Source of the DNA: a bacterium
GTDB taxonomy: Bacteria; Patescibacteriota; Minisyncoccia; Phycocordibacterales; Phycocordibacteraceae
Reading direction: 5' to 3'
DNA: 64,000 nucleotides
Assembly: GCA_021802705.1 (NCBI GenBank)
Contig: JAJZRL010000001.1
Span: 84,379-148,378 of the forward strand
Positions 41,125 to 63,275 of the stretch are shown piece by piece. The notes beneath the pieces were generated by a model, which ran no database searches, was not told where the DNA came from, and was given only the letters and a program-made list of their open reading frames with translations. Position 1 is the first letter of the stretch; each line of letters starts with the position of its first letter. Position numbers and translations under genes: made by a program.

Positions 41125-41131
41125 GAGAACG

Positions 41132-43821: not shown

Positions 43822-43892
43822 GAATGGTGCTGTTCACTATACCACAAAACGAAAAGAAGTTAATCGGCTCGTAGCGGTAAAGCTTCCGACAC

Positions 43893-45212: not shown

Positions 45213-45278
45213 CCGCTAGGCGAGCCGGATTCCATAAAGCCGCAGCAAACTTGGACTAGGTTTATCCGGTACTGGTGG

Positions 45279-45310
45279 CTTAGGGGCGAAGGGATTCGAA
45301 CCGAAAATAC
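45279..45310. repeat. degenerate tRNA 3'-end-like fragment (putative distal att-repeat remnant)
   Basis: ggcgaagggattcgaaccg matches ggcggagagattcgaactc (the T-arm and acceptor of tRNA-Ser at 62242-62265) at about 15 of 17 positions, in the same orientation. Confidence 0.4.
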
Positions 45311-45531
45311 GTTGCAAAATATAGGTTTCGGCATACTGCCGATAAAAAGTCCTAAGGGCGGTGAGGGTCGGTTGCGAACTTTACCCTTTCAAGCAGTGTA
45401 AGGCTTTTTGAGCGACTTTGGAACTAGCCAAAACTAGGGGGAACGGTCGGAGTCTGATTTTCACAAATGAGACTAATGAGACGTTTTAAGGCGTTTTCTG
45501 GTGTCTCATTCTCAAGAGTCCCCTTAGACTA

Positions 45532-46032
45532 TTACACTAAGGACTGCTTACGACTTCGTAGGTACCTGTACTCATGCCAGGTAAGCCATATCACCGCTAT
45601 GTCTAGGATGGTTATCAGTAATAGCCAAGGAGAATGCGTAAAACTGAATCGATAGAGCTGATATGCAATGAACAACCCGAAGACCACTATGGCTGTGGGA
45701 TAGTACCAGAGTTTCTTTCGAAGAAGGCCAACAATGAGGAACATTTTTATAACCCCATGACTCAACAGGAAAAGCGCAGCAAAGTGTTGCGAACTTATCG
45801 AGAAATTCTGTGCCGAGTGAAGCAAGTAATTAGCGATAAAGTCTCTGGGGTCTTGCAGGAGCTCGTGCTGGGTCAGAGCAAGTACGAGGTTTAATAGAAA
45901 TTGCTGGCTGATGAAATATATCAAGACACCGCCGATAATTTCAAACAGCGCAATAACGGCTTTGGCAATGAGACTCAGCTCAAATACCAAGTGGATGTTT
46001 TTCTCTTCAAATAGTTTCTTTAGGCCAGACAT
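45532..46032 (-). CDS. DUF2127-like polytopic membrane protein
   Basis: Four hydrophobic helices are present and the coding sequence is low in G+C. Confidence 0.5.
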   Translation of the reverse strand: MSGLKKLFEEKNIHLVFELSLIAKAVIALFEIIGGVLIYFISQQFLLNLVLALTQHELLQDPRDFIANYLLHSAQNFSISSQHFAALFLLSHGVIKMFLIVGLLRKKLWYYPTAIVVFGLFIAYQLYRFSFTHSPWLLLITILDIAVIWLTWHEYRYLRSRKQSLV

Positions 46033-46474
46033 TTTTTATTAAAAAGTAGATGACCGAAGTTGCCAGAATTGAGATAGCCATACTCCCCGCGACGTCGATG
46101 GGATGGTGGAGCCCAACGTACACCCGAGCCGCTGCGACAGTGAGTGCTAACACCCATAATACTATTCCCAACTTGCGGTTTAGATAGATTCCAATTGCTG
46201 CAACTGCTGATACAAGGAGTGCGTGGTCAGATGGAAAACCGTTATCGGGAGTATGCGGTATGAGCGGAGTAAAATTGCCGACTACAAACGGTCGCGTATC
46301 AAAATAGATATAACCACCAAGTAACGCAAGCAGGTAGATGAACGCCAGAGATGGCAGCGCAAAGACCAGTATCCTCTTTTGCACTGATCGCGGTTGGGAC
46401 AGAAAGTAGACACCCAGAACAAGGATAGGTATGACGAAAAGATATTTTGCAGAAAGGATAAAGAAAAGATCCAT
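46007..46474 (-). CDS. PAP2-family phosphatase (membrane-bound)
   Basis: The PAP2 motifs ...GFPSDHA... and ...RVYVGLHHPIDV... are embedded in TM helices. Confidence 0.8.
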   Translation of the reverse strand: MDLFFILSAKYLFVIPILVLGVYFLSQPRSVQKRILVFALPSLAFIYLLALLGGYIYFDTRPFVVGNFTPLIPHTPDNGFPSDHALLVSAVAAIGIYLNRKLGIVLWVLALTVAAARVYVGLHHPIDVAGSMAISILATSVIYFLIKNVWPKETI

Positions 46475-46922
46475 TCAGATCATTTTAGCAAAAAAGTGAC
46501 TTTATTTCAGAGAGGTTGGCCAAAGAGCAGGCCCCAAAGATTGATAAGAAATAACAAGCATTGACAAGAGGACGGACGTATTGGGTTATCCACAGCCCCT
46601 CAGACCGGGCCAGTGACAAATAATTGCGGATCCGGGATAATTACTGGCAAGTAAGCAACAGGTACCTGTCCTCCGGTTCGGAGCCGTGAGCAAGGGTGGG
46701 AAGCGCGATCGCGTTGCTGAACGCAAGAGAAAAAACAAACCAAGGTAGCCATCACACGCTCTGTGACCTACCACATTACTGGCTAATTTTCTCGTTGGCG
46801 ATCTCTACACGCTCCACCCTAGGAGCACCCTAAATTATTCGTCCTCTAATAAGGTGCGTTTAGCGTTACTTGCAGCAAGCAAGTGTGCAAAACGTACCTA
46901 CCCACAAAAGTGGTTCTTAACC

Positions 46923-48278
46923 ATGAAAAAAGAAAAAATTACAGATCTAGAAGTAGACTACGTTCCCATTACTAATCTCAAGCCCTGCGAGTACAACCCA
47001 CGCAAGTGGAGCAGTGAATCACGCAAGGGATTAACAGAAAGCATCGACGAGTTCGGCTTCGTGCAGCCGCTCGTTGTTAATGCCGCCCCAAAGCGCAAAG
47101 GCGTTGTAATTGGCGGAAACTTCAAGCTTGACATCGCCAAGAAGAAAGGCATGGCAACCGTGCCGGTCGTGTGGGTCAACATCCCCGATCTCGAGCGCGA
47201 AAAATCCTTGAATCTCAGATTAAATAAGGCGCAGGGAGAATTTGACTTCGAACTACTGGCCACCTTCGATGAGAATTTCCTCAAAGACGTAGGATTCTCT
47301 TCCGAGGAGCTCGACAATATCTTCGAGGCCGACGAGACGCCCGAGCAATTCGATCTCGTCAAAGAACTCGCCAAGCTTGATATCACCAACGTCGAGATCA
47401 AAAAGGGCGACGTGTATGAATGGCCCGACGGCTCGCGATTGGCCTGCGGCGATAGTACGGTCGCTGAAGACATGAAGTCACTCATGGGCGACGCGAAAGC
47501 AGACATGTGCTTCACGGACCCACCTTACCGACTGGATTACTTGAAAGGCAAAAAGAAAAACGGCAAACCGGTTGAGGGTTTCGGTGCCAAGCGCGACCGC
47601 AAGTACCTTGAGACCGACGTGCTACCGGAGAATTTCACTGAGCTCTGGATGGGCACTGTTGCCGCAGCCGCTAAAGATGACTTCCACATCATCGTGTACG
47701 AGAACTGGAAGAACCTTCGCGAGATTTGGGGCGAGATGGAGAAGCACTGGAAGGTCAAAAACATGCTGGTGTGGCACCTCCCGAACCGTACGCAAGGCTT
47801 TTCCGCCAAGTACAAGTTTTTCTCCAAGCATGACATCGCGATGGTAGGTTCTTCTCCTAAAGCGCGCGGTATGAATCTCAAGTCGGAAGCAGAGTTGCTC
47901 CAAAACGAATATGAAACTGCGCTGTATGCCATCCAAGGCAAACCGCACTGGGAGGGATACAAGAAGGGTCGCAAGTACCAGCCGACCGATTTCATCGAGT
48001 ATGTTGCGTCCGATGCAAAATCATCCGGGCAGGGCGTAGTGTTTGGTACTAAGCCGATCGAGATACTGATCCCGTACGTGAAAGTCCTCACCAAGCGCGG
48101 CGACCTCATCCTTGAGCCCTTCGGGGGCAGCGGCTCGAGCGGCGCTGCTGCGATCACCATGAAGCGCCGCTGCTACACCATGGAGAAGGTGCCTACGTAT
48201 GCGGAGATCATCCGTCGCCGCTGGTCGAGGTTACTGGGACAGAAGCCGAAGAAAATACATGAAAGAAAATCAGCGTAA
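46923..48278 (+). CDS. ParB-like nuclease domain fused to a DNA N6-adenine/N4-cytosine methyltransferase
   Basis: An N-terminal ParB/Srx-like domain (…PITNLKPCEYNPRKWS…FGFVQPLVVN…) is fused to a methyltransferase with a DPPY motif (CFTDPPYRLDY) and a C-terminal AdoMet motif (EPFGGSGSSGAAA). The start was moved to MKKEK at 46923. Confidence 0.8.
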   Translation: MKKEKITDLEVDYVPITNLKPCEYNPRKWSSESRKGLTESIDEFGFVQPLVVNAAPKRKGVVIGGNFKLDIAKKKGMATVPVVWVNIPDLEREKSLNLRLNKAQGEFDFELLATFDENFLKDVGFSSEELDNIFEADETPEQFDLVKELAKLDITNVEIKKGDVYEWPDGSRLACGDSTVAEDMKSLMGDAKADMCFTDPPYRLDYLKGKKKNGKPVEGFGAKRDRKYLETDVLPENFTELWMGTVAAAAKDDFHIIVYENWKNLREIWGEMEKHWKVKNMLVWHLPNRTQGFSAKYKFFSKHDIAMVGSSPKARGMNLKSEAELLQNEYETALYAIQGKPHWEGYKKGRKYQPTDFIEYVASDAKSSGQGVVFGTKPIEILIPYVKVLTKRGDLILEPFGGSGSSGAAAITMKRRCYTMEKVPTYAEIIRRRWSRLLGQKPKKIHERKSA

Positions 48279-48690
48279 AACGGTGGACGCGCGGATCGCC
48301 AAGGGCAAGCAGAAATTCTTAGAGATTCTCGAGAAAAATCCGGTGATCCATGTGGCCATCGAACGCTCCGGTATCAGCAAAGCCACCTTCTACCGCTGGC
48401 GCGATACCGATACGGAATTTGCTGAGAAAGTAGAAGCTGCCATGCGCGAGGGCAAAGGACTCGTCAGCGACATTGCCATAGCGCAGCTCGTCACCGCTAT
48501 CAAGGAGAAGAATCTCGGCGCGATTAAGTTCTGGCTCATCAATCACCACCCTGATTACGCCAACAAACTGCACGTCACGGCGGAAGTAGAAGAAAAGTTC
48601 GTATGGACGCCAGAGGACGAGGAGCGTGTGCGTAAATCGCTGGAGACCGTCGCATTAAAAGCTAAGCAAAAATTCTTCCATGGAATCTAA
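48259..48690 (+). CDS. phage terminase small subunit-like HTH protein
   Basis: An HTH segment (…GISKATFYRWRDTD…) sits immediately upstream of and overlapping the terminase large subunit. The start is taken at the internal Met, which overlaps the upstream gene by ~20 nt. Confidence 0.55.
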   Translation: MKENQRKTVDARIAKGKQKFLEILEKNPVIHVAIERSGISKATFYRWRDTDTEFAEKVEAAMREGKGLVSDIAIAQLVTAIKEKNLGAIKFWLINHHPDYANKLHVTAEVEEKFVWTPEDEERVRKSLETVALKAKQKFFHGI

Positions 48691-50206
48691 CCCTGAAATA
48701 CAAGCGATCATCGACATGATGATCAAAGATCAACCGTTCCGCAGAGCGATGGTGACGAGAGAGCCACGTCTCTTCTTCGGCACCTACCTCAGCCACTACA
48801 TCACCTGCCCCCTCGCATACTTCCACTTCGAGATGTTTGAACTGCAAAAAGACTCGCGCAACAAGACTATCGTCATCATGGGGGCGCGCAACAGCGCCAA
48901 GTCGACCATCATGAATACGAATCTTGCACTGTGGTCAATCCTCGGGGAGCCCCAAAAGAAAATGGTCGTGATACTTGGCTCCACCCAGATCAACGCAAAG
49001 AAACACTACCTGGACTTGCGTTCCGAGCTCGAACAGAACGAGCTACTGCGCTCCGACCTCGGACCTTTCAAAGAAAAGGATTCTGCCTGGGGGCCGACCC
49101 TACACTTGCCGAAGTACGGCGCTGACATCACCTTTGCATCGACCGAACAGAGCATACGCGGTTTCAAAGTGGGACCTCACCGCCCTGACCTCTTCATTGC
49201 CGACGACCTCGAAGACGATGAGTCGGTAAAGACGCTGGAAGGACGCAACAAGCTCTACGACTGGTTGACGAGGGTGGTGTTGCCCGCTGGAGACGAAAAA
49301 ACAACGCGCCTCATCGTGCTCGGGACTCTGCTACACGAAGACTCGCTCATGATGCGGTTGAAAAAAGATATTCTGAGTGGTGACAGAGAGGGTTCGTACC
49401 GCGAGTACCCGCTTCTCGACGAGTTCGGTGGCGCGATGTGGAAAGGAAAATATCCTGACGCCGCGGCTATAGAGGCACTGCGTAAGTACGTCGGCAACGA
49501 AAAAGCATTCACCCAAGAGTACCTCTTGAAGGCCGTCTCAAATAACGAGCGCGTCATCTATCCGGAATGGATTCACCGCTATACGACCTTGCCGCCGATG
49601 AATACTGACAACCGCTATCGCGGCGCGTTCATTGGGATGGATTTAGCGATAGCGCAGAACCAGCAGGCCGACAATACTGCCATGGTGGTAGGTAGAGTGT
49701 ATGGCTGGGGTGACAACATGCGCATATATATCCTACCCAATCCCGTCAACGAGCAGATGGACTTTCCGACAGCTCGCGAACGAGCGAAAGCGCTGTCTTC
49801 ATCTCTTGATGTAGGGAGGAAAGCAATGATGTTCATCGAAGGCAACGGATATCAACGTGCACTCGCTCAAGACCTTCCCGGTTATCCGGCAACTGCAATC
49901 ATCGTCCACGGTGACAAACGCGCGCGCTTAGCGCTTGAAAGCCACCGAGTGAAAGATGGCATCGTGCTGTTTCCCGACAAGGGCTGTGAGACATTGATCG
50001 CGCAACTTACCGGCTTCGGCAGCGAGCGCCATGACGATTTGGCGGACGCGTTCGGGCTCCTGGTATCAGAGGTCGCAAAGTCGAACAGTGGATACCATCC
50101 GTTTTCACCATCGCTCAACAGGCTTCCAAGACCAGAAAAGGGAGAGGACGATCCGTTTGAGAACTTAAGACCTTTCACCAGAGGATTCTTAAAAATGAAA
50201 TTCTAA
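48680..50206 (+). CDS. phage terminase large subunit
   Basis: Walker A (IMGARNSAKST) and Walker B (DLFIADDLED) are followed by an RNaseH-like nuclease domain with conserved acidic residues (…FIGMDLAIAQ…, …RHDDLADAFG…). Confidence 0.8.
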   Translation: MESNPEIQAIIDMMIKDQPFRRAMVTREPRLFFGTYLSHYITCPLAYFHFEMFELQKDSRNKTIVIMGARNSAKSTIMNTNLALWSILGEPQKKMVVILGSTQINAKKHYLDLRSELEQNELLRSDLGPFKEKDSAWGPTLHLPKYGADITFASTEQSIRGFKVGPHRPDLFIADDLEDDESVKTLEGRNKLYDWLTRVVLPAGDEKTTRLIVLGTLLHEDSLMMRLKKDILSGDREGSYREYPLLDEFGGAMWKGKYPDAAAIEALRKYVGNEKAFTQEYLLKAVSNNERVIYPEWIHRYTTLPPMNTDNRYRGAFIGMDLAIAQNQQADNTAMVVGRVYGWGDNMRIYILPNPVNEQMDFPTARERAKALSSSLDVGRKAMMFIEGNGYQRALAQDLPGYPATAIIVHGDKRARLALESHRVKDGIVLFPDKGCETLIAQLTGFGSERHDDLADAFGLLVSEVAKSNSGYHPFSPSLNRLPRPEKGEDDPFENLRPFTRGFLKMKF

Positions 50207-50415
50207 CGACGCTTCTTGCGAGGTTTGGCGAATAGACTAAGTTGATCGGGAACGAGAGGCGGCTTCTGCCGCCTCTCGACGTTCCATAGTAGCTGCAAGA
50301 GCTTTATGAGGTAGTGCCAAATCGCGTAGGCCTCTCCGAGAGAAATATTACGGCCGGTCGATTCCTTAATGATTCGCCGAAGCTCGATAGCACTCTGTTT
50401 GGAGAGAATGGCCAT
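50203..50415 (-). CDS. hypothetical small protein
   Basis: A 70-aa ORF with a basic C-terminus. No family was recognised. Confidence 0.35.
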   Translation of the reverse strand: MAILSKQSAIELRRIIKESTGRNISLGEAYAIWHYLIKLLQLLWNVERRQKPPLVPDQLSLFAKPRKKRR

Positions 50416-50466
50416 GAGGCCATTCCAGCTTAGATCTGGAGGTTTGCGAAGCGAGTTGTCTACTGG

Positions 50467-51060
50467 CTATTTGGCGAGTGCTTGAATATCAGCACGAGCC
50501 TTTGCAAAGTCGTCGGATACCTTCTGTTCGTCAGCACGTAGCTTGGTAGTGGAGATTTCTTTTATCTGCCAACTAACTGCATCGCCAGCCCAGAGGCAGA
50601 TATCACTTGCTGCATCATTAATGTCCGCATTCCAGTTGCCGAGGGCATCGGGCGAGGTGTCAGGGTATAAACTATCAGCTTGTTGGTAAGCGCTGATTGC
50701 GTTAGCTCCCGGATCATTCTTGAGGCACGTATTTGTGCGAAACGAACCAAACTGGCTTGCAGCTGAATTTGGATCGTTGAACGCCTTGAGGCCTGCGTTT
50801 GCATCTGCATACTGCATTGTGCCAAGAGCAGTCTTCCCGGCACCTAATAGCGATACGTAGTGATCAATACTTGCTGAAAGAATCGCGACAATCTTTTGCG
50901 TATCTGGAGCAGATGATGTTGCCACTGCTACAGGATTTTGTGTTGGTGCACTTTCCTGTGCCTGCTTAGTAGGCTGTGGCGTGTTGAGACCAATGATAAG
51001 CAGTAAAACAAAACCGAGAACAACTACCCCGATAATGGAGTAGAGAACTTTTTTGAACAT
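50467..51060 (-). CDS. hypothetical secreted or anchored protein
   Basis: A signal-anchor (MFKKVLYSIIGVVVLGFVLLLIIGL) is followed by a low-complexity linker. No family was recognised. Confidence 0.5.
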   Translation of the reverse strand: MFKKVLYSIIGVVVLGFVLLLIIGLNTPQPTKQAQESAPTQNPVAVATSSAPDTQKIVAILSASIDHYVSLLGAGKTALGTMQYADANAGLKAFNDPNSAASQFGSFRTNTCLKNDPGANAISAYQQADSLYPDTSPDALGNWNADINDAASDICLWAGDAVSWQIKEISTTKLRADEQKVSDDFAKARADIQALAK

Positions 51061-51379
51061 AAAATCTACTAGGATTTATGTGGCAGAACCTCCTGAGAAA
51101 ATCAAAAGGCTCCCAGCCATCGCGATAGCGCCTTTCGGCAACTACCCATACCCGTTTCCAGATATGACCTAGTAGAGTGACTCTGACTGGGAGTCCTTTG
51201 ATCTCTACTAGGTTTTGCGGCCATACCTTAGGAATTTGACTTCCTAAGGGTTAGGTCGGCTTATATTAGGTTGTGCAAGTACATGATAGCAGAAAACGCT
51301 ATCATCTGACCACCTTAGCTTAGCTTTGGGGGCTTGCGAAGCGGTTACCAACAGGTTGGGCAAATACAATTACTATCAT

Positions 51380-52783
51380 TTATACACAGCAGCTGAGCTT
51401 AGAAATATCTTTAGTAAACGAAAGTGCGGCGATCTTAATAGCTTCCGACAGCGACGGGAATATAGGGAGCGAGCTGGTGACATCGTCAATTGTATTTTTA
51501 TTTCGTATCAATATCGCGGCCTGAGCGATCAGTTCGACAGCATTCGGCGCGAGAATGTGCACGCCCATGATCTGTTTGGTTTTCGGATGAATGGCCATTT
51601 TGATGAGTCCGTCAGTCTGGCGCAGGATGATTGCTTTTGGCACATCAGCTAATGAGACGGTGCGACACGCGCAGACGCCCATCGCTTTCATCTGCCCCTC
51701 TTCGGTATAGCCAACGCTTGCGAGCTGTGGATCAGTGAAGATCGCGTACGGCACAGTGTTGTAATCGATAGAAAGCTGCGTGCCTTTGAGAGCATTTTCC
51801 GCTGCGAGCGTGCCTTCGTGTCCGGCAGTCGGCTCTAACCGCAGTGGTGCGCTCGTGATATCTCCCACCGCAAAGATATGGGACTGCGATGTGGCAAAAA
51901 ATTGATCAACAACGATTGCTTTCTTGCCATCTATCTCCACCCCCACTTTCTCAAGCCCTAATCCTTGTGTGTTTGGCGTTTTGCCAGTCGCCAGCAGTAT
52001 TTCATCGCCTGAGACTTCTTCCTGTTTGCCGCCTGAAGTGTACGTGACGTATTTCTTGTCTGCGTCTTTTCGAGCAGCGAGAACATCTACATCGGTCTTA
52101 ATGATAATTCCTTGCTTCTCGAGAATCTGGCGCAGGCGGTCGGTCAGTTCTTTCTCCGCAGGTGGAAAGATAGACGAGCCGCGCTGGAGTATTGTCACCT
52201 TCGTGCCAAATCGGGAAAATAGCTGCGCGAATTCAAGACCAAGAGGTCCTGCGCCCACAACAATCAACTCTTTCGGTTGGCGTTCCAACTTCAGCGCCTC
52301 TATGTGGGTGATAAACCCGACTTCGCGGATATTTTCAATGGGAGGGACAGTCGTGGTTGAACCTGCCGCGATAATAAATTTCTTCGCGGTGAGTCGCTTT
52401 CCGTTAACCTCTACCTCATTGGAGGATACAAACGCCGCCTTGCCGTCGATGAGAGACACATGCTCAAGACCTGTGAGAACCTTCTCGTACTTCTCATTGC
52501 GGAGCCTCTCAACGAGAGCGAGCTCGTCTTGCACGACTTTCGTAAAATTGAAGTTTTTTACTTCCAACTCAATACCGGGGATGCCGTGATGCTTTGAATA
52601 ATGCAAGATTTCACCCGCATGGATGAGCGTCTTTGAAGGAACACACCCGACGTTTACGCAGGTACCACCAAGAGGAAGTCCGCTATTTATCATCGCAGTC
52701 TTCGCACCTAGCTCGTCGGCACGAATCGCCGCCGCAAACGCTCCTGCACCACCACCAATAACAATTAGATCGTATGTTTCCAT
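51380..52783 (-). CDS. merA: mercuric reductase (no N-terminal HMA domain)
   Basis: FAD-binding GGGAGAFA, the redox-active disulfide GGTCVNVGCVPSK, a dimerisation domain and the MerA-diagnostic C-terminal vicinal Cys pair (…KLSCCV) are present. Confidence 0.8.
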   Translation of the reverse strand: METYDLIVIGGGAGAFAAAIRADELGAKTAMINSGLPLGGTCVNVGCVPSKTLIHAGEILHYSKHHGIPGIELEVKNFNFTKVVQDELALVERLRNEKYEKVLTGLEHVSLIDGKAAFVSSNEVEVNGKRLTAKKFIIAAGSTTTVPPIENIREVGFITHIEALKLERQPKELIVVGAGPLGLEFAQLFSRFGTKVTILQRGSSIFPPAEKELTDRLRQILEKQGIIIKTDVDVLAARKDADKKYVTYTSGGKQEEVSGDEILLATGKTPNTQGLGLEKVGVEIDGKKAIVVDQFFATSQSHIFAVGDITSAPLRLEPTAGHEGTLAAENALKGTQLSIDYNTVPYAIFTDPQLASVGYTEEGQMKAMGVCACRTVSLADVPKAIILRQTDGLIKMAIHPKTKQIMGVHILAPNAVELIAQAAILIRNKNTIDDVTSSLPIFPSLSEAIKIAALSFTKDISKLSCCV

Positions 52784-52788
52784 GTAGG

Positions 52789-54040: not shown

Positions 54041-54128
54041 ATATTACTCTTGGTGAGTGGTTATTGCAAATGAAATTATCAACACCAAGAGGTTGGGATA
54101 AGTGCCAAGGGATCTCGACGAATGACCC

Positions 54129-56351
54129 TTACCTTCTCTTCAAGAGTAAAGAGTTAGTGACCACGGAAATTGAACTAGTCGCCATCGCAACCGACGCGAA
54201 GATCGGATTTAACAGAATATGGAAGAATGGATACAAAGCGCCCATCGCAACAGGAATTAGGATGATGTTATAACCGAATGCCCAGACTAGGTTCATTTTG
54301 ATCGTGCGCATTGTTTTCTTGGAAAGTGCGATAGCTGTGGCAACGGATTTCAAGTCCTTATTTATAAGCGTGATGTCAGCTGCCTCGATAGCTACGTCGG
54401 TACCGGTTCCCATGGCAATGCCGACGTCTGAAGCGGCGAGTGCGGGCGCGTCGTTGATACCATCACCGACCATCGCAACTTTTTTACCTTCCGCCTGAAT
54501 TTTACGCACCTCTGCTTCCTTTTGATCTGGTAAGACTTCAGCAAACACGCGGCTGATGCCTAACTGCTTGGCAATGGCATTTGCAGTTCGTTCGTTGTCT
54601 CCAGTGATCATAGCCACTTCGATACCGAGCTTTTGTAGTTCGGCAAGGCCTGCTTTCGCACTTTCTTTGATGGTATCTGCAACGGCGATAAGTCCGATGA
54701 GTTGTTTTGAAGTGCCGAGCATCATCACCGTCTTGCCCTCGCTTTCCATTGTTGCAATCTGATTCCCGACTGCCTTAATGTCTACACCTTCACGATCCAT
54801 CAGACGTCTGTTACCAAAGATTATTTTCTGCCCGTCGACAACACCCTCGACACCATGCCCAACTATAGCTTGAAACTTCTCAATCCTTGATAGGCTGAGA
54901 TTCTTTACTTCAGAAGCCTTCACGATTGCTTCGGCGAGTGAATGTTCTGAGCCCTTTTCTATCGAGGCCGCGATTTTGAGTACCTCATCCTTTGAGTAAC
55001 TGCCGAAAGGAATAATGTCTGTGACCTCGGGTTTTCCATTCGTGAGCGTGCCTGTCTTATCAAAGATAATCGTGTTGATTTTGTGTGCTGTTTCCAAACT
55101 TTCTGCGTCCTTGATAAGTATGCCGTGCTCCGCTCCTTTCCCTGTGCCAACCATTATTGCGGTCGGTGTCGCAAGTCCCATTGCGCAGGGGCACGCAATT
55201 ATGAGAACGGCGACGGTATTCAAGAGTGCAAACGTGAGTACCGGAGTTGGGCCGAAAACATACCAAACAACGAACGTGCCTACGGCAAGCATTATCACTA
55301 TCGGTACAAAATATGACGACACTAAGTCTGCTAATCGTTGTATCGGTGCTTTGCTGCCTTGCGCCTCCTGCACGAGCTTGATGATTTGTGCGAGCATTGT
55401 TTCTTGTCCTACCTTTGTCGCCTTGAAAGTAAACGAACCGGTTTTGTTCATCGTCGCGCCAACAACGGTATCTCCCTTTGTTTTATCGGCAGGGATGCTT
55501 TCGCCAGTAACCATTGATTCGTCAATTGAAGATTCACCTTCGACAATAACTCCGTCTACTGGAATTTTCTCACCTGGTCGTACTCTGATGACGTCGCCTA
55601 TCACGACCTCGCTGATTGATATATCTGTCTCTTTGCCGCCGCGAATGACGCATGCGGTTTTCGCTTGCATCCCGATGAGTTTCTTAATAGCTTCCGATGT
55701 ACCCGCCTTTGCTCTCGCCTCAAAATAACGACCTAAAAGAATGAGACCAATGATGATCGCTGATGTATCGAAGTATGGCATCGGACTGATGCCGATACTC
55801 GCTACCAATTGTGGAAACAAGGTCACGAATGTCGAATATCCGTATGCAACTGACGTACCCAAGGCAACAAGCGTGTCCATATTTGCAGTGCGGTGCCGAA
55901 GTGCAGAAATAGCCGCGCGGTAAAATCCATATCCTGCCCAGAACTGTACCGGAGTCGCGAGCAACAACTGCAACCAGAAATTTTGCAAGCTCGTTGGAGC
56001 CGTTTGCATGAGCACCGGAAAACTGCCCCATAGAATCAGGCCACCCAAAACAAGACTGAGAATGACTTTAATTTTTAAGTCTTTAAGTTCCTTTTGTTTT
56101 TCAGCTTGCTCGTCTGCTTCATGTATCATTTCGTCACTGATCGAGGCTTCGTAACCGACATTAGAAACTGCCGATGAGAGGTGCTGATGGGTGACTTTCT
56201 GAGGGTCGTAAGTAACGGTAGCTTTTTCAGTAGCCAGGTTTACGGTAGCTTGTGCAACTCCATCAACTTTTTTAAGCGACCGCTCCAAAATTGTCACACA
56301 TGAGGCGCAGTGCATTCCCTTGATTGAGAAACTCTTTTTGATTTGCGGCAT
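54129..56351 (-). CDS. copA: copper-translocating P1B-type ATPase
   Basis: N-terminal HMA (GMHCASCV), a TM CPC motif ([13 protein letters not shown]), DKTGTLT, the HP motif and GDGINDAP are all present. Confidence 0.9.
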
Positions 56352-56378
56352 AATTTTTTCTTAAAATTATCTATTTGC

Positions 56379-58274
56379 CTAATATTTTCTTGCAACCCGC
56401 AAACCATTCCCGACCGCGATAAGCTCCGCGACTTCGTGAACGGTCACCGCTATGGCAACTGTCAGGAAGCCGATGAGTGCAGAGGGAATAAGGACGGCGA
56501 GGAGGAGTATTGAAAACACAATGTTCTGCAAGCTGATCCCACGAGCTTTTTTCCCCAATCCAATTGCATACGGAATCTTCGTAAGGTCGTCGGCCATAAG
56601 CGCGACATCGGCCGCTTCGATGGCCGCATCGGTGCCAGCTGTGCCCATAACCATGCCGACGGAACTTTCCGCCAGAGCTGGAGCGTCGTTAATTCCGTCG
56701 CCGACCATTGCCACCACTCCGTATTCTTTTTTAAGTTCTTTTATTGCCGCTACTTTTTCGTCTGGTTTGAGATCAGCCTTGATTTGATCAATGCCGAGTT
56801 CTTTTGCGATAGCTTGGGCAGTGACCAAGTTGTCCCCAGTTAACATAACAACGATCATGCCCATGTGTCGGAGCTGGGTGATTACCTGCTTGGCGACAGG
56901 TCTAATTTCATCTCGGACAGCAATCATTCCAAACAATGCTTTATCCGACCCGACGAGCATAATGGTCTTTCCTTCTTTTCTAAGCTTTTCCATCTTAGAG
57001 TCGAAAGGGGTTACATCAAGCTTTGAAAATAAATCTTTTTTGCCCACATAAATTGTCTGGCCATCTATGACTGCTTTTGTACCGAAGCCGGACATCGCTA
57101 TGAAGTCAGAAGACGGCAAATTTTCTATAGCAAGCGATTCCGCATATCTCACGATAGCTTGGGCGAGCGGATGGCCATTAAACTTCTCCACGCTATAGGC
57201 CAATGTGAGGACATTTTTCTCGTCGCTGTTGATGGGAATAATGTCGGTGACTATCGGCTCTCCGCGAGTCAGCGTCCCAGTTTTATCAAACGCAACAGCT
57301 CTGATTTTCCCCAAGTTCTCCAAATAGACACCGCCTTTGATGAGCACGCCTTCGCGTCCGGCTCGGCCGATTCCGGCGGCCACGGCTACCGGCGTAGACA
57401 TGACCAGCGCACACGGAGCGGCGGCGACCAAGAGGACAACTGCACGAACGCCCCACGCTGAAAGTGAAGGATCTATCAGAGAAAACAGTGCAAGACCTAT
57501 TGCGCTAAAGAGTACAACCGGCGAGTAGTATTTACCGAACTTTTCAATAAACTGCTGGGCTTTGCCTTTCTTTTCCTGCGCCTCCTCGACCAAATGCACG
57601 ATTTTGGAGAGCGTATTGTTCTCAAAGGTTGCCGTAACTTGAATCTCCAGCGCGCCTTCTTGATTGATGGTGGCGGCGAACACATGCATCCCTTGGCCTT
57701 TTTCCACAGGGATTGATTCGCCGGTGACCGGGGCTTCGTTCAGACTAGACTTGCCTTTGATGATTGTGCCATCGGTTGCGATGGATTCACCAGGGCGCAC
57801 CAAAAATATATCGCCGACTTTCAGTTCGCTAGCAGGAATCATTGTCTGTTTTCCATCTCGCATAATTCTGGCTTCCTTTGGTGCGAGATCGAGGAGTTTG
57901 CGGATCGAGGCTCGCGCTCGTGCATAGGCGTATTCCTCTAGTCCTTCGGCAACGCCATAGATAAATACCAAAAAGGCTGCCTCGTCCCACATGCCGAGGA
58001 TTATGGAGCCAATAGTCGCTCCGAGCATCAGAAGCTCTATGCCGATCTCTTTGCATTCGACCAGCTCCTCAATGCCTTCACGCGTCCAGTGGTAGCCTCC
58101 GATGACAATCGCAAAAATATAAATACCGATTTCAAATCCGGAAGGGATAATGCCGAGGTGTCTCAAACCAAATGCCAACAAGGTTAGGCCCCCAGCGATG
58201 AGAGCGTTTCGCATCGGCGGATGCGCGTAGAGCTTGCCATCAAATCCATCATGATCTTTTTCTTTGTGTGCCAT
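56379..58274 (-). CDS. heavy-metal P1B-type ATPase lacking an N-terminal metal-binding domain (APC motif; Zn/Cd/Co-type?)
   Basis: [17 protein letters not shown] and a TM motif AAAPCALVMSTP (APC in place of CPC/SPC) are present. There is no HMA domain. The start is taken at MAHKEK; the ORF track extends two codons upstream to a TTG. Confidence 0.8.
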   Translation of the reverse strand: MAHKEKDHDGFDGKLYAHPPMRNALIAGGLTLLAFGLRHLGIIPSGFEIGIYIFAIVIGGYHWTREGIEELVECKEIGIELLMLGATIGSIILGMWDEAAFLVFIYGVAEGLEEYAYARARASIRKLLDLAPKEARIMRDGKQTMIPASELKVGDIFLVRPGESIATDGTIIKGKSSLNEAPVTGESIPVEKGQGMHVFAATINQEGALEIQVTATFENNTLSKIVHLVEEAQEKKGKAQQFIEKFGKYYSPVVLFSAIGLALFSLIDPSLSAWGVRAVVLLVAAAPCALVMSTPVAVAAGIGRAGREGVLIKGGVYLENLGKIRAVAFDKTGTLTRGEPIVTDIIPINSDEKNVLTLAYSVEKFNGHPLAQAIVRYAESLAIENLPSSDFIAMSGFGTKAVIDGQTIYVGKKDLFSKLDVTPFDSKMEKLRKEGKTIMLVGSDKALFGMIAVRDEIRPVAKQVITQLRHMGMIVVMLTGDNLVTAQAIAKELGIDQIKADLKPDEKVAAIKELKKEYGVVAMVGDGINDAPALAESSVGMVMGTAGTDAAIEAADVALMADDLTKIPYAIGLGKKARGISLQNIVFSILLLAVLIPSALIGFLTVAIAVTVHEVAELIAVGNGLRVARKY

Positions 58275-58278
58275 AGGA

Positions 58279-58641
58279 TTATTTAACAATGATTTTGCCG
58301 TGATACATGTTCATGCCGCAGGAATAGGTAAATTCGCCGGTTTGTTGAGGTGTCAATTCTACGGTTACTTTTTGATTAAGCGGCAGATATTTGCGTATTT
58401 TGAAATCTCCTAGCACTACTTCTTCAAGGCAGCTCGTTGGGTCTTTACGGATAAAATTTACCTTTGTTGTCTTTTCTTTGGGAATCGAGATAGTTTCGGG
58501 TGAGTAACCGCCCTCTACAATGATGTCTACAGATGAATCAGAAACAGCAACTTCTTTTTCGCGTTTGCCCAAGAAAAACCAATAGGTAAAGGCAATTCCT
58601 GCAAGGCCGACTATAGTGACGATGATTTTATCTGGTGTCAT
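58279..58641 (-). CDS. cupredoxin-like copper-binding protein (membrane-anchored)
   Basis: An N-terminal TM helix is followed by a beta-sandwich domain ending ...TYSCGMNMYHGKIIVK (type-1 Cu-like C..H..M ligands). Confidence 0.6.
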   Translation of the reverse strand: MTPDKIIVTIVGLAGIAFTYWFFLGKREKEVAVSDSSVDIIVEGGYSPETISIPKEKTTKVNFIRKDPTSCLEEVVLGDFKIRKYLPLNQKVTVELTPQQTGEFTYSCGMNMYHGKIIVK

Positions 58642-58649
58642 ATTTCTAT

Positions 58650-58988
58650 TTAGCGTAACGCGTGTTCTGTGATTTCAAGATTACAGCTATGATGCTGTTT
58701 GCACCACACCTCGCATTTCTCTGCCCACTCTTTCTCCGCGTACCTGAAGCCACATTCAGGACAAACATGGGCTCCTGATTCTTCTTTCTCGATCTTGTAG
58801 TCTCCAAGATTCTCGATTTCTTTTTTCAGAGTCTCAAGGTCAAGAGCTTCGTTATGCTCTATTTCTGTTTTTCCGGTCGTAAAATCTACAGTGCAACTCA
58901 AGACCTCCTTGTGATCTTTACAGACATCTTCAATGAGCATCTTGCATGCGTTGCAATGAGTGCCTTTGATGGTGAGATTGGTTTTCAT
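58650..58988 (-). CDS. HMA-like metal-binding domain fused to a C-terminal Cys/His zinc-ribbon-like cluster
   Basis: GTHCNACKMLIE is an HMA variant with THCxxC. It is followed by …CPECGF…CEVWCKQHHSCN…. Confidence 0.55.
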   Translation of the reverse strand: MKTNLTIKGTHCNACKMLIEDVCKDHKEVLSCTVDFTTGKTEIEHNEALDLETLKKEIENLGDYKIEKEESGAHVCPECGFRYAEKEWAEKCEVWCKQHHSCNLEITEHALR

Positions 58989-59209
58989 GTATTTTTTGTA
59001 TCGTCTTTCTTTGTCGTTTCTTCTTTTTTATGACCTCGATTCATCATCGCCATCATGAGCACCATTGAGAGCGGACAGATGAACGCGACGAGCAACCCCG
59101 AATACTTGAGCATCTGTGGTGCAAAGAAGTAGAACAGAATGATCACAGCAAGTACGCCAATAATAACCTTCGGATTCAAGCAACACTTGATCATTTCCCA
59201 GATGCTCAT
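58985..59209 (-). CDS. hypothetical small membrane protein with N-terminal CC pair
   Basis: A 74-aa protein (MSIWEMIKCCLNP…) with two TM helices and a basic tail. Confidence 0.35.
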   Translation of the reverse strand: MSIWEMIKCCLNPKVIIGVLAVIILFYFFAPQMLKYSGLLVAFICPLSMVLMMAMMNRGHKKEETTKKDDTKNT

Positions 59210-59213
59210 ATGT

Positions 59214-60953
59214 TTATGAATCTATGACGTTAAAGCTGGTTTGTAATGCGCCCATGGGACAGACCACCCGCACGATGCCAGTGTGAGTCGGTGTAAATTT
59301 AAGGACGTTTTTCCCGCCAACCGCAAGAAGCTGTGATACTCCGTAGTCGGGAATTGTCATCACTCCCATACAGCCACCCACGTTGACCTTGTCGTCAACA
59401 GTAAGTTCAACCGGGACGTTATTTTTTACCGTAATCATCTGCGGATAAAATCCACGCTCTCGCGAGACCTCCATCGAGACTTGCTGTGCTTGTACGCATG
59501 TTGCTTTCGTAGGATCACACACTGACGAGTCTGTAGATGCCTGCGCGTCGGCCGAGACAACTGTACCGCTCGTATTCGGTATGACCGTAAACGACGCACC
59601 GCGCGTCATCATACCCATAGGACAGTTGAAAGGAATTGTTCCAGTTTCTGTCGGTGTGAACGTAACGGTGGTAATGCCCTGCGAAGAGAAGGATTTTGTG
59701 ATGCCAAGTGTCGGCATCACGAGTACCTGTCCGCAGCCTGCAGCTTGGCCTCCGTCGATTCTCCACTCAACCGGAATACCGGCTTGCACGGTAAAGTGCG
59801 AAGGACTGTAACTGTAGCCACTCACTTTCATCTCGACGATCTGTTTTCCATCTTCGATCGGTGCTGTCGCGGCTTGCGCGACGACTCCGCCGCTGGACGG
59901 AAAAGAGAGATTCACTCCCGTCAGCGTCAAAGCGTTGCCGATGTTCCAGAAGCCAAGCAGTACCACGAGGACGGCAGAGAATCGCAAGAAATGCTTTTGA
60001 AATGCACCTTTGGCAAAGCTCGACAAAGCGCTAAGAGAAAGCAGCATCGGCAAAGTACCGAGCGAGAATGCAAGCATAGTGAGCGCTCCTCCGGTGAAGT
60101 TGCCGAGGGTGAGTACGTAGAGTTGCAGCGCCAAGGTAAAGCCGCACGGCAGGAAGAAAGTAAGCGCACCTAAGACGAATGCGCCGCCTTTGGTATCTTT
60201 CCCGCTCAAGTCATGGATTTTGTGTGCGATGAACTTCGGCATACTTGGTTGAAGCCGTCGCATCCATGGGAATAGATTCAAGAGCTGAAACCCAAGAATA
60301 ATCATCACGAGACTTGCAATGATTGAGAGGAATCCTGTGCCTCGTGCCGAGAGGCTAATTACAGAGCCAAGCGCACCGATAAGACCTCCAAAGAACGTGT
60401 AGGAGACAATACGACCGGCGTTGAAGTAGAGTGTTGGTTTGAATTTTTGGTAGCCCGTGAGGTTTGGATATAGCTCGTTGTATTTTGCAGCTGCTGCTAG
60501 CAAGAGTCCTCCCGCCACCGCAAGACAGCTTGATGTACCGGCCACAAGCCCGATCAAGAAGATAAAGCCGTAGCTCATGTTGTTTGTAATACCGAGGCCT
60601 TCAGGGATGATGTGGAATTGTTTGAGAATCAGATACGCAGCGAGAATAAACAAGAACACTGCTCCAATCTCAGCGTAGTCGCGAGCGGTGTTCTTGTGTT
60701 TGGTGGCTTCGGGCGAAGTGTGGCGATCTTCCCACTTGGAAACAGAGTAGCCGTCTTCTTTGATTGCACTTTCAAATGCATGAAGCGGAACATGCTCCCG
60801 CGAGAAGACTTCAGCCTTGCCACTAACAAAGCTGACATTTACCTTTTCGACGCCGGGAAGCTTTTTGAATTTACGTTCAACTAGGACTTCACAACTTGCA
60901 CAGTGAGTGCCGTGAATCTTAAGTTTTGTTTTTTGTAATTGAGACATAAGCAT
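59214..60953 (-). CDS. HMA domain + DsbD_2-like (CcdA-type) transmembrane domain + two C-terminal cupredoxin-like repeats
   Basis: An N-terminal HGTHCASCEVLVE HMA domain is followed by a 6-TM core with SSC and FLPCG motifs. The C-terminal 200 aa contain duplicated …GCGQVLVMP…FNCPMGMM… and …GGCMGVMTIP…VVCPMGAL… motifs. Confidence 0.6.
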   Translation of the reverse strand: MLMSQLQKTKLKIHGTHCASCEVLVERKFKKLPGVEKVNVSFVSGKAEVFSREHVPLHAFESAIKEDGYSVSKWEDRHTSPEATKHKNTARDYAEIGAVFLFILAAYLILKQFHIIPEGLGITNNMSYGFIFLIGLVAGTSSCLAVAGGLLLAAAAKYNELYPNLTGYQKFKPTLYFNAGRIVSYTFFGGLIGALGSVISLSARGTGFLSIIASLVMIILGFQLLNLFPWMRRLQPSMPKFIAHKIHDLSGKDTKGGAFVLGALTFFLPCGFTLALQLYVLTLGNFTGGALTMLAFSLGTLPMLLSLSALSSFAKGAFQKHFLRFSAVLVVLLGFWNIGNALTLTGVNLSFPSSGGVVAQAATAPIEDGKQIVEMKVSGYSYSPSHFTVQAGIPVEWRIDGGQAAGCGQVLVMPTLGITKSFSSQGITTVTFTPTETGTIPFNCPMGMMTRGASFTVIPNTSGTVVSADAQASTDSSVCDPTKATCVQAQQVSMEVSRERGFYPQMITVKNNVPVELTVDDKVNVGGCMGVMTIPDYGVSQLLAVGGKNVLKFTPTHTGIVRVVCPMGALQTSFNVIDS

Positions 60954-60958
60954 TTTAA

Positions 60959-61576
60959 TTATTCACCTGCTGGAAATGCGTAGGACGCAGGAATAGCCTG
61001 CGGAGCTTCCGCGCCCGTACCATAGACGATTACTATTTCTTGATGTGCTTGCAGTTGCAACTCTCGCGGATCGCCTTGATAAAGCGTACCATTCGAGTAC
61101 ACCTTGAGCGTTTTATCTCCCGATGCGACATAGGCACCGATTGTGTCCTTCGTGAATTTCACTCCCCAGATGTCGAAGAATTGTCCGAGCGTGAATGTTT
61201 GTATTTTCGGCGACTCGACATGAATGACGCCAGTACCGTCATGCACATGGATGTCGGAAATGAATCCCGCAACCTGATTGATACCGATATTTGCAGGCAC
61301 TGGTGTCGGCTTGCCGTCAATGACGATGTCGAGATGTTGATGGATGTGTAGCGCCGTTCCTTCCGAAGAGAGCGCAGGAAGTCCTATTGCTTTTAGACGC
61401 GCAGGAAGATTTGGAATCTCGGCTCCCCACGGGGCATTAGTTGTTTGAATGCCTGGAAGCTCTCCTGATTCTGCAACAGGTGCCGGACTTTTACTTGGGA
61501 ATATATGGCTCCAAGAAAATAGGACGCCGAGCACGACTACAAATCCAACTATGCACAGTATTGTTTTTGTCTTCAT
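60959..61576 (-). CDS. hypothetical secreted protein
   Basis: A signal-anchor (MKTKTILCIVGFVVVLGVLF) is followed by a His-rich segment (LHIHQHLD…ISDIHVHDGTGVIHVE), which may bind metal. Confidence 0.5.
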   Translation of the reverse strand: MKTKTILCIVGFVVVLGVLFSWSHIFPSKSPAPVAESGELPGIQTTNAPWGAEIPNLPARLKAIGLPALSSEGTALHIHQHLDIVIDGKPTPVPANIGINQVAGFISDIHVHDGTGVIHVESPKIQTFTLGQFFDIWGVKFTKDTIGAYVASGDKTLKVYSNGTLYQGDPRELQLQAHQEIVIVYGTGAEAPQAIPASYAFPAGE

Positions 61577-61580
61577 AGTT

Positions 61581-62240
61581 TTATTTCTTTAGTGCAGCAT
61601 CTATTGCCTGCTTGAATGCTGCGTATGGCTGTGCGCCGGAAATCAATTGTTTGCCGATGATCGTTCCGGGAGTGCCATTAATTCCCATTGCGCTTCCTTC
61701 TGCCTTATCAGCATCCATTTCTTTTTGATATGTATCGGCATTCTTCACTGCAAGTTGCATGGCTTTTTGAGCGTCGGTTGCACCGAGTACGCCAGTCGTA
61801 ATCGAGAGAATCTTCGCGTCCGTTGCCCAGCCGGTATTTTCGGTTCCTTGATTGTCGTAGACGGCTTTGTGCCACTGGTAGAATTTAGTTGGCGCAATAT
61901 CCCACACGGCACGCGCTACTTTCCCAAGTCGTTGTGAATCTTCACTCAAGAATTGAAAATCTTTGAATACGATTTTTACCTTGCCGGTATCGACATAATC
62001 TTTGACGATTTGCGGCATTACCGTCTCTTCGTTTTGTTTGCAGAATGGGCACTGGTAGTCATACCAGTACGCAATAGTGACAGGAGCATCCACTTTCCCG
62101 ACGTATGGTTCTCCGTCAGTTTTGACATTGCTAATGTCAACGGCTATTTGTGGAGCGGCTTGCGCTTGAGCCTGTTGCTGTGGAACTGCAGCAGCACTTC
62201 CCTGATAGGGGACGGTCGCGGAACACGCTATCAGGTTCGT
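61581..62240 (-). CDS. DsbA-family thiol:disulfide oxidoreductase (start undetermined; ORF-track N-terminus reads through tRNA-Ser)
   Basis: A thioredoxin fold with CPFC is present (…WYDYQCPFCKQNEE…). The first 22 codons of the 61581..62306 ORF are antisense tRNA. There is no in-frame ATG after the tRNA (possible GTG at ~62093), and no signal peptide is evident, so the gene may be 5'-truncated. Confidence 0.55.
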   Translation of the reverse strand, partial: TNLIACSATVPYQGSAAAVPQQQAQAQAAPQIAVDISNVKTDGEPYVGKVDAPVTIAYWYDYQCPFCKQNEETVMPQIVKDYVDTGKVKIVFKDFQFLSEDSQRLGKVARAVWDIAPTKFYQWHKAVYDNQGTENTGWATDAKILSITTGVLGATDAQKAMQLAVKNADTYQKEMDADKAEGSAMGINGTPGTIIGKQLISGAQPYAAFKQAIDAALKK

Positions 62241-62241
62241 G

Positions 62242-62328
62242 CGGAGGCGGAGAGATTCGAACTCTCGAGACCCTTTCGAGCCTGCCGCCTTTCCAAGGCG
62301 GTGCACTAGACCGCTATGCGACGCCTCC
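62242..62328 (-). tRNA. tRNA-Ser (anticodon GGA), long variable arm
   Basis: The reverse complement GGAGGCGTCGCATAGCGGTCTAGTGCACCGCCTTGGAAAGGCGGCAGGCTCGAAAGGGTCTCGAGAGTTCGAATCTCTCCGCCTCCG has acceptor GGAGGCG/CGCCTCC, anticodon stem CCGCC/GGCGG with loop TTGGAAA, and a 5-bp variable-arm stem. Confidence 0.85.
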
Positions 62329-62365
62329 CGTTATGGTTAGGTTATAGCAGAAAAATCCGTTTTCA

Positions 62366-63268: not shown

Positions 63269-63275
63269 ACGGAAG

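Follow-up and report, generated by a model that had tools for sequence, protein, structure and literature searches.

Here, we report a low-G+C block of 17 kb (positions 45213 to 62240) in a 64,000-nucleotide stretch of contig JAJZRL010000001.1 (assembly GCA_021802705.1, a bacterium of the Phycocordibacteraceae, Patescibacteriota). This whole stretch is called the window, and positions are counted from its first letter. The block is probably a horizontally acquired, decayed or immobilised member of a family of terminase-encoding elements with a large serine recombinase (LSR), lodged in a hotspot at tRNA-Ser(GGA) and carrying a mercury, copper and zinc/cadmium resistance array. Its ParB-domain DNA methyltransferase and its small (TerS) and large (TerL) terminase subunits form the core that is conserved in an integrative element found repeatedly, and are not a random scrap of prophage. 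The single locus is of modest interest; the family that it exposed is of more. Labels of the type L001 to L178 denote comparison loci and contigs from relatives.

A foreign block at the tRNA-Ser(GGA) hotspot

The initial annotation, made from the letters alone, had placed sharp compositional breaks at 45213 and about 62241, with an AT-richer island between them at the 3' end of a tRNA-Ser(GGA) gene. Sliding G+C and tetranucleotide profiles bore this out, as composition was not uniform and the edges of the deviant block were sharp. G+C content was 57.1% at positions 1 to 45212, 48.9% at 45213 to 62240 and 58.3% at 62241 to 64000, and the lowest value of any 17-kb backbone window was 56.1%. In 300-nt windows, G+C fell from 0.60 (44950 to 45249) to 0.46 (45250 to 45549) at the left edge and rose from 0.47 (61900 to 62199) to 0.59 (62200 to 62499) at the right edge. 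Tetranucleotide correlation with the backbone fell from >0.9 to 0.34 to 0.64 in the island. The insertion site was confirmed with ARAGORN and Rfam: tRNA-Ser(GGA) is intact (62241 to 62328, minus strand), its 3' end (62241) faces the island, which starts at 62240, and this 3' end is the commonest variant among relatives.

Species-representative genomes were scanned with the adjacent M48 peptidase, which yielded 80 loci (63 to 87% identity). All came from metagenome-assembled genomes of Kaiserbacteria, Paceibacterota and Parcubacteria, which confirms a host from the candidate phyla radiation (CPR). Linkage of M48 to tRNA-Ser(GGA) was kept in about 70 of the 80. Beyond the tRNA, the relatives carried collinear homologues of window genes at 35.0 to 25.5 kb, not of those on the SDR side of the island: 35012 to 35779 (DUF5666), 34465 to 34938 (DUF192), 31956 to 34343 (ribonucleotide reductase-like) and the open reading frames (ORFs) 29072 to 31447, 27368 to 29068 and 25578 to 27416. 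Since DUF5666 and DUF192 directly follow the tRNA in relatives, the variable slot of the window extends from 35.8 to 62.24 kb (26.4 kb), of which only the tRNA-proximal 17 kb is compositionally foreign. The search for empty sites in related genomes, proposed with the initial annotation, found them in six relatives, in which the spacer between the tRNA and the first conserved gene was 67 to 176 bp (L035, L066, L006, L030, L033 and L073); the same spacer exceeded 9.8 kb in other relatives. The gap between tRNA-Ser(GGA) and DUF5666/DUF192 is thus a lineage-wide integration hotspot in Kaiserbacteria-like Patescibacteria. In alignments of the tRNA-to-DUF192 spacers of the empty-site relatives to the window at 35.8 and 45.2 kb, the original flank could not be placed, owing to the short length and high divergence of these spacers.

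Out of the 146 slot ORFs of relatives, Pfam assigned 6 to HlyD, 4 to P-type ATPases and 4 to LSR domains, with MFS, multicopper oxidase, methylase and MacB/FtsX families also present; no tyrosine integrase was found among the recurrent families. In L015, a 548-aa LSR (Resolvase, Recombinase and Zn_ribbon_recom domains) adjoins tRNA-Ser and reads towards it. It is followed by EcoRI-type methylase, GmrSD and AbiEii-like genes at 31 to 50% G+C (58% in the backbone), and the island ends 7.2 kb away at a 16-nt repeat of the tRNA end. Full-length LSRs of the L015 type stand beside tRNA-Ser in seven more relatives (L069, L018, L014, L062, L022, L031 and L026), and LSR fragments lie at the slot in four (L063, L009, L024 and L021). 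LSRs appear to be the main integrases at this hotspot. The classic tRNA-integrative signature invoked by the initial annotation holds for the tRNA 3' site; the recombinases that relatives use here are LSRs and not the classic tyrosine integrases.

Exact copies of the tRNA 3' end (12 to 21 nt) were found downstream of the tRNA in 15 relatives. Exact copies of 13 to 21 nt lie only 130 to 340 bp past tRNA-Ser(GGA) in L011, L016, L062, L067, L080, L082 and L083 (two in L083), and these close copies may be footprints of earlier integration and excision. As a separate observation, LSR ORFs of about 540 aa run antisense through the whole tRNA-Ser gene in L015, L014, L018, L022, L026 and L062 (in L015, LSR ORF at 10931 to 12577, minus strand; tRNA-Ser at 10974 to 11061, plus strand). 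The last 30 to 50 codons of these ORFs are therefore tRNA derived; the attachment site apparently falls within the LSR reading frame.

Metagenome-assembled CPR genomes are prone to chimeras, and the comparison genomes belong to other species, so we also considered that the block might be no real island and represent a vertically inherited AT-rich region or a chimera of assembly or binning. An independent Logan assembly (L001) was 100% identical to window positions 39190 to 51173, and the left junction is therefore no assembly artefact. The junction between the tRNA and dsbA, the first gene of the cargo, falls inside the window, and TerL and MerA are each recorded on a contig of up to 286,228 bases. 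With empty sites in relatives, and with cargo genes 74 to 92% identical to relatives in distant CPR classes, an artefact or a vertically inherited region is extremely improbable.

The methylase-TerS-TerL family and LOOT RNA

The core consists of three plus-strand genes. The first encodes a ParB_N-domain N6/N4 DNA methyltransferase (46923 to 48278; Pfam and PHROG), the ORF of which opens at 46854; the start at 46923 was taken from the gene call in L001. It is followed by a TerS-like small terminase subunit (48259 to 48690, ORF opening at 48199; phrog_4044, 7.5e-9) and by an apparently intact, full-length TerL (48680 to 50206; phrog_38, 5e-62). TerL had 1568 homologues at E<=1e-10, many of them on contigs of 0.14 to 0.6 Mb, and several of the few named ones were Patescibacteria. 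In an alignment of 40 homologues, 49 columns were invariant; among them are a GSAKS(T) motif of the P-loop type and conserved pairs of acidic residues, which would be the motifs of the ATPase and the nuclease.

Window proteins and the L015 LSR were used as probes on a sample of five chromosomal TerL contexts and 80 IMG/VR loci retrieved by TerL alignment, and 88 TerL loci were tallied. A collinear methylase was present in 73 of the 88 loci and a TerS homologue in 61, always between methylase and TerL. Out of 58 non-redundant loci with TerS and TerL, 53 had at least 1.5 kb of downstream sequence, and in 42 of these a same-strand LSR lay downstream of TerL at a gap of 81 bp to 9.3 kb (81 to 375 bp in 20 loci, 6.8 to 9.3 kb in 7). 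No LSR was found in the 28 more distant TerL loci that had no TerS match. On contigs that included a tRNA, it lay just past the LSR and converged on it (L094, L107, L118, L129, L132, L140 and L165; mirrored in L142). The tRNAs beyond the element LSRs were Ser, Glu, Asp, Gln and Arg, in the same geometry as in L015 and the window. Element size appears to be about 5 to 15 kb. In L086, the neighbourhood reads PAP2, P-type ATPase, CsoR, DUF2127, methylase, TerS, TerL and a 70-aa protein that also follows TerL in the window.

No exact repeat of the adjacent tRNA end was found in nine TerL/LSR loci, so long direct repeats are not a family feature. None of the 88 TerL loci had the terminal repeats of circular contigs. 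Scans with TerL as a single protein gave one distant match among viral contigs and two short contigs among metagenome contigs.

The window shares the family's collinear methylase-TerS-TerL run (46923 to 50206, plus strand), variable cargo, LOOT RNA and convergent tRNA (tRNA-Ser(GGA), 12.0 kb downstream of TerL), and lacks the same-strand LSR. The layout of the family is ParB-methylase, TerS, TerL, often a LOOT RNA, a cargo slot of 0 to 9 kb, an LSR and a convergent tRNA 3' end, and it recurs in dozens of public contigs. The initial annotation had seen a phage packaging/methylase module combined with a metal-resistance array. Both are present; since the terminase core has a cargo slot, here holding the metal array, the two modules are probably one element and not a chance combination. 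A full-text literature search found no description of serine recombinase/terminase elements in Patescibacteria or CPR, nor of satellites with a ParB-methylase, and this recurrent CPR mobile element (methylase-TerS-TerL, LOOT RNA, cargo, LSR and tRNA) is apparently undescribed.

Terminase subunits are hallmark genes of phages, and the locus might instead be a decayed tailed temperate prophage at tRNA-Ser, of which methylase, TerS and TerL were left, with a separate metal operon later replacing the structural genes. The difference in G+C between the terminase core (52.5%) and the cargo (48.3%) would suit such a history, as would the existence of the metal array elsewhere without a terminase module. 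Distant TerL kin also lie on viral contigs of 30 to 50 kb (L136, L137, L153, L159 to L162 and L166 to L171); these lack the methylase-TerS-LSR pattern and are possibly true phages. Random decay, however, would not yield the order methylase-TerS-TerL-LSR in 42 of 53 loci, often with the LSR 81 to 375 bp past TerL, nor does a full-length TerL with 49 invariant columns look like debris. No portal, capsid, tail or lysis gene was matched by Pfam or PHROG in any island ORF. When the 8-kb regions upstream of the methylase genes of 17 loci were surveyed, capsid, portal and tail families were likewise absent from the most frequent Pfam and PHROG matches, and the gene tables of the five chromosomal contexts contained neither structural families nor primase-replication genes. 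The flanks of the core in at least 17 loci held defence cargo and further LSRs instead, and in L087 the recognisable module is only about 6 kb long, with ordinary cellular genes on both sides. A prophage remnant is accordingly an unlikely explanation.

The cargo of the relatives raises another explanation. Long gaps between TerL and the LSR were filled by type I, type III-like and type IIG restriction-modification genes and PIF1 helicase (L103, L104, L108, L119 and L151), and the 8 kb upstream of the methylase in the 17 loci contained more defence genes and further LSRs. Defence genes around the core included GmrSD, AbiEii-like and OLD-like genes and the Avd gene of diversity-generating retroelements (DGR). 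A trio embedded in such defence islands, with the methylase as one of its parts in 73 of 88 loci and no virion genes nearby in the loci examined, could be a domesticated, restriction-modification-like defence system riding LSR islands, in which the methylase marks self, the TerS-like protein binds DNA and TerL acts as an ATP-driven nuclease. PADLOC, run on the core and hypothetical proteins, returned only generic type II methylase models and none for TerS or TerL. The position of the trio is fixed relative to LSR and tRNA and the cargo varies between them, which makes it look like an element backbone and not like cargo. Some loci also have tandem TerL duplicates, and we know of no experimental precedent for such a system. 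We consider a defence role of the trio quite improbable, and prefer to read it as the core of an integrative element.

The tandem duplicates were seen in L095, L096, L097, L098, L102 and L145, where two TerL paralogues (44 to 49% identical to the window TerL) lie between TerS and the LSR, an arrangement that is odd for a packaging module. Paired modules were found on single IMG/VR "viral" contigs of 25 to 55 kb (L101/L114, L106/L135 and L132/L133), and these two-module contigs may be cellular island arrays and not phage genomes.

A LOOT RNA (RF03000), unlisted in the initial annotation, was identified with Rfam at 51127 (or 51124) to 51257 on the minus strand, between merA and a 197-aa gene (77.2 bits against a gathering threshold of 46.4; model positions 1 to 121 of 121). 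It occurs in 11 other distinct TerL loci (12 with the window), with Rfam matches in L086 (13067 to 13184), L089 (10702 to 10820), L091 (12968 to 13090) and L093 (5516 to 5639) and further copies in L106, L110, L117, L121, L130, L141 and L142. A covariance model built from five copies gave 13 matches in 1.31 Mb of TerL loci versus 2 in 1.13 Mb of control (M48) loci; the control matches were in L026, about 0.9 kb from an LSR-like match, and, weaker, in the tRNA-Ser slot of L044. In TerL loci, the RNA usually lies 0.5 to 2 kb from TerL or beside the LSR. Across 12 distinct copies, compensatory changes were found in 38 of 43 pairs, and pairing was 91% versus 31 to 42% when the partners were slid. 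LOOT RNA is a recurrent, facultative component of methylase-TerS-TerL(-LSR) elements. The window copy agrees with the Rfam family in its full-length match and in the covariation-supported structure; Rfam lists the RNA as a small RNA, and here it is tied to these elements. To our knowledge, no function has been assigned to this orphan RNA, and the elements give it a testable genomic context. We found no paper stating that context, and Weinberg et al. 2017 yielded no passage on LOOT.

Phage satellites (phage-inducible chromosomal islands [PICI], their capsid-forming relatives [cf-PICI] and P4-like elements) are compact integrative elements that carry packaging genes without a full virion set and a fixed slot for defence or adaptive cargo. 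The family resembles them in compactness, packaging genes and exchangeable cargo slot. It differs in having a serine and not a tyrosine recombinase, both TerS and TerL, a ParB-methylase and a LOOT RNA, and in hosts that are Patescibacteria; genes for capsid, portal, primase-replication or a master repressor were not recognised here. Among the island ORFs, Pfam and PHROG detected no satellite-type regulatory or replication genes (alpA/stl, pri-rep). Temperate phages with LSRs (phiC31, Bxb1 and TP901-1 type) carry a recombinase of Resolvase, Recombinase and Zn_ribbon_recom domains next to the attachment site. LSR architecture at the element end and a phage-type terminase are shared with these; the elements differ in having no structural, lysis or replication genes within 8 to 10 kb in the loci examined.

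Speculatively, the terminase core could package the element into the capsids of a helper phage, in the manner of satellites, and the ParB-methylase could act in packaging or in protection from restriction. We know of no helper phage for these elements. It is conceivable, though we put it forward tentatively and as less likely than otherwise, that the family forms a new class of capsid-less, terminase-encoding integrative elements, widespread in Patescibacteria, that hijack helper capsids and shuttle defence and metal cargo, with LOOT as a hallmark RNA (e.g., a packaging, replication or regulatory signal). If satellite-like, they would be a vehicle of gene exchange in organisms in which routes of horizontal transfer are poorly known.

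Edge scars and a possible history of the island

The initial annotation had found no integrase in the island. This held for an intact gene: Pfam recognised no recombinase domain in any island ORF (for tyrosine integrases, the search of window positions 1 to 35 kb, syntenic housekeeping DNA, was not exhaustive), and no LSR was found in the window by tblastn with the L015 LSR or with a profile of 48 LSRs in six frames. A 3'-terminal LSR fragment of about 110 nt was, however, detected by blastn at the left edge (45358 to 45468, plus strand; pseudogene). Positions 45358 to 45514 match L089 (4294 to 4451) and L090 (2475 to 2632) at 77% identity over 158 nt (E 1e-26), and the matching stretch of L089 is the end of an intact 540-aa gene (Resolvase, Recombinase and Zn_ribbon domains) plus the downstream junction. 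In the window fragment, peptide similarity is kept, with an in-frame stop inside. The junction in L089 and L090 precedes a minus-strand gene and a methylase-TerS-TerL element, as in the window. It contains a motif, conserved in relatives, with direct and inverted GAGAC/GTCTC repeats (45459 to 45515, plus strand), and its 27-nt core, AATGAGACTAATGAGACGTTTTAAGGC (45466 to 45492), recurs without mismatch in L089 and L090, where it immediately follows the LSR stop codon. In L043, the same core differs at one position and lies distally in the tRNA-Ser slot island.

A short sequence resembling a tRNA 3' end, GGTTCGAATCCCTTCGCCCCTA (45281 to 45302, minus strand), lies at the compositional break and is a candidate remnant of the distal attachment site. 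It was the best non-tRNA match in the window (12.7 bits) to a position weight matrix built from 71 tRNA-Ser(GGA) 3' ends, and it holds one of only two exact copies of GGTTCGAATCC in the window. A second tRNA-Ser-like 3' end, among the top two matrix matches, lies antisense inside the LSR fragment (45359 to 45380). Both scored within the maxima of shuffled sequences, and as remnants they are suggestive only. An E-value scan of 45100 to 46900 with Rfam for partial tRNAs gave nothing relevant, and a generic repeat search of the window found only chance-level families.

At the right edge, dsbA has neither start codon nor membrane anchor. About 25 N-terminal residues present in its 240- to 242-aa homologues (L176 and L177) are missing, with tRNA-derived sequence in their place. 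From the tRNA to the conserved part, none of the start codons ATG, GTG and TTG occurs, and the ORF (to 62306) opens only via the tRNA gene. This dsbA is probably a 5'-truncated pseudogene, or else is unusually expressed. Both edges of the island look like truncation scars.

From these edges the following history may be proposed. An older LSR island of the L015/L089 type would have inserted at the tRNA first and the terminase element after it, in tandem accretion, the latter brought in (with fair confidence) by LSR-mediated integration at the tRNA 3' end. One deletion would then have removed most of the older island, leaving about 110 nt of its LSR, and another may have started at the tRNA end, taken out the LSR of the element itself and reached into dsbA. 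The island is an ordinary, immobilised genomic island, and the element type is integrative and possibly satellite-like.

Several observations weigh against this interpretation. The island has no intact recombinase, neither of the left-edge tRNA-like remnants exceeds shuffled maxima alone, the Rfam tRNA model is blind to both, and the window holds no exact direct repeat of 12 nt or more from the tRNA end. Within 10 kb of the closest TerL relatives, in L085 (80%) and L086 (55%), there is likewise no LSR, so an adjacent one may never have existed in this sub-lineage. The 12.0 kb between TerL and tRNA in the window is longer than every TerL-LSR gap seen (maximum 9.3 kb). In L176 to L178, the metal array has no TerL, LSR or tRNA within 10 kb, and it could therefore have entered the slot independently. 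The empty-site genomes are of different species (M48 identity 69 to 82%), with none of the same species. Finally, the satellite-like role of the core is pure inference.

With tRNA-associated genomic islands in general, the locus shares a tRNA 3' site, deviant composition, resistance cargo, absence from relatives and a layered hotspot. It differs from them in that relatives use LSRs here in place of tyrosine integrases and in that a recombinase and clean direct repeats are missing from the window copy, the edges of which look like scars. An island with resistance cargo at a tRNA is of a known kind, and the element family differs from the kinds named above. A survey of genomic islands in Patescibacteria reported many, and a term search of its text found no mention of recombinase, terminase or tRNA (PMC12455944).

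Metal-resistance cargo and neighbouring features

The cargo is a minus-strand array of about 11 to 12 kb (51380 to 62240). Its mercury block (51380 to 54040) consists of an ArsR/SmtB regulator (53723 to 54040; NF033788), a redoxin (53190 to 53726; PF00578), a MerC-like protein (52789 to 53193; PF03203, 30.7 bits) and MerA (51380 to 52783), a 467-aa core form without the N-terminal HMA domain (TIGR02053, 525.8 bits against a cutoff of 454.45). No MerR regulator was present, the regulator being of the ArsR/SmtB type, and no MerT or MerP equivalog scored above cutoff in the island ORFs. The block is followed by CopA (54129 to 56351; TIGR01511, 645 bits against 397), a Cd/Zn-family P1B ATPase without an HMA domain (56379 to 58289; TIGR01512, 501 bits against 313.5) and an envelope copper/thiol set identified with Pfam (58279 to 61576), which comprises a cupredoxin, an HMA/Zn-ribbon protein, a 74-aa Cys peptide, an HMA-DsbD_2-cupredoxin fusion and a His-rich protein that is DUF3105-like in relatives. 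The DsbA-like thioredoxin-fold gene (61581 to 62240; PF13462, 4e-29) abuts the tRNA 3' end. Judged from these families, the array would confer metal resistance through Hg(II) reduction by MerA, efflux by the P1B ATPases and envelope cupredoxin and thiol-disulfide proteins, and the ArsR-type repressor is likely, by family knowledge, to control all of these: mercury reduction by MerA/MerC, Cu(I) and Zn/Cd efflux, and the envelope proteins.

Like the proteobacterial mer operons of the Tn21/Tn501 type, the array has a bona fide MerA beside a mercury transporter-family gene and HMA proteins. It differs in having ArsR/SmtB and not MerR, a MerC-like protein without MerT/MerP and no merB or merD, and in that its mercury genes are joined to a larger cluster of Cu/Zn-Cd and thiol-disulfide genes, of a kind typical of CPR contigs.

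MerA homologues 74 to 86% identical were found in Magasanikbacteria, Vogelbacteria, Nealsonbacteria, Saccharibacteria and "Patescibacteria group". The genes for ArsR, redoxin, MerC and MerA recur as a block in L172 (78 to 92% identity), and the order from dsbA to the ATPase(s) is kept at 64 to 89% identity in L176, L177 and L178. The closest cargo relatives lie on contigs of 44 to 51% G+C. The idea of mercury and copper genes as exotic in CPR genomes, on which the initial annotation had drawn, is corrected by these relatives and syntenic arrays; MerA has also been tabulated in CPR phyla, including Kaiserbacteria (PMC8261052). The low-G+C donor proposed in the initial annotation is supported, and since the cargo relatives are in Patescibacteria contigs of lower G+C, the donor was most likely another Patescibacterium of lower G+C. 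Three Patescibacteria assemblies (L173, positions 8009 to 12811; L174; L175) share an identical MerA, 78% identical to that of the window, accompanied by ArsR, MerT and an HMA protein. In these, MerA lies between the 536-aa LSR of a prophage-like element (S24 repressor, RecT and FtsK-like genes) and a short comM-like Mg-chelatase gene.

The gene list of the initial annotation proved essentially right when run against Pfam, PHROG and NCBIfam, apart from the "MerT-like" gene, which scores as MerC, the missing LOOT RNA and the start of dsbA, which exists only by read-through of the tRNA. Left of the core, two minus-strand genes encode a DUF2127 membrane protein (45532 to 46032; PF09900, 1e-31), a homologue of which is directly upstream of the methylase in L086, and a PAP2 phosphatase-family membrane protein (46007 to 46474; PF01569, 6e-16), with homologues near the core module in L086, L087 and L106. 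The 448-bp non-coding stretch between PAP2 and the methylase (46475 to 46922) had no Rfam match above noise and could serve the element as a regulatory, pac or origin region.

Convergent with TerL is the gene of the conserved 70-aa protein (50203 to 50415, minus strand), with homologues 75% and 62% identical in the same position in L085 and L086. A 197-aa hypothetical protein follows (50467 to 51060, minus strand; ORF call). Neither protein had a match in Pfam, PHROG or PADLOC. A 27-nt direct repeat, 85% identical, was found at 50427 to 50453 and 51317 to 51343; viewed on the minus strand, one copy immediately precedes the 70-aa gene and the other the LOOT RNA, and the repeat may be a shared promoter or operator.

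The distal 9.4 kb of the slot (35831 to 45212) has backbone G+C and a tetranucleotide correlation of 0.92 to 0.94. By Pfam, it contains a polysaccharide deacetylase, an HlyD/MacA-MacB-FtsX efflux set, DUF5666, a cytochrome b-like protein, an HD protein, DUF488 and the SDR, and its efflux genes have weak homologues in the same slot of L005, L019, L024 and L058. This part may be an older layer of the slot or lineage specific. A second, smaller dip in G+C (0.505 to 0.536; tetranucleotide correlation 0.80) was seen at about 10000 to 14000, around a divergent tRNA-Ser(CGA)/tRNA-Glu pair (12253 to 12471), and may mark another small insertion site.

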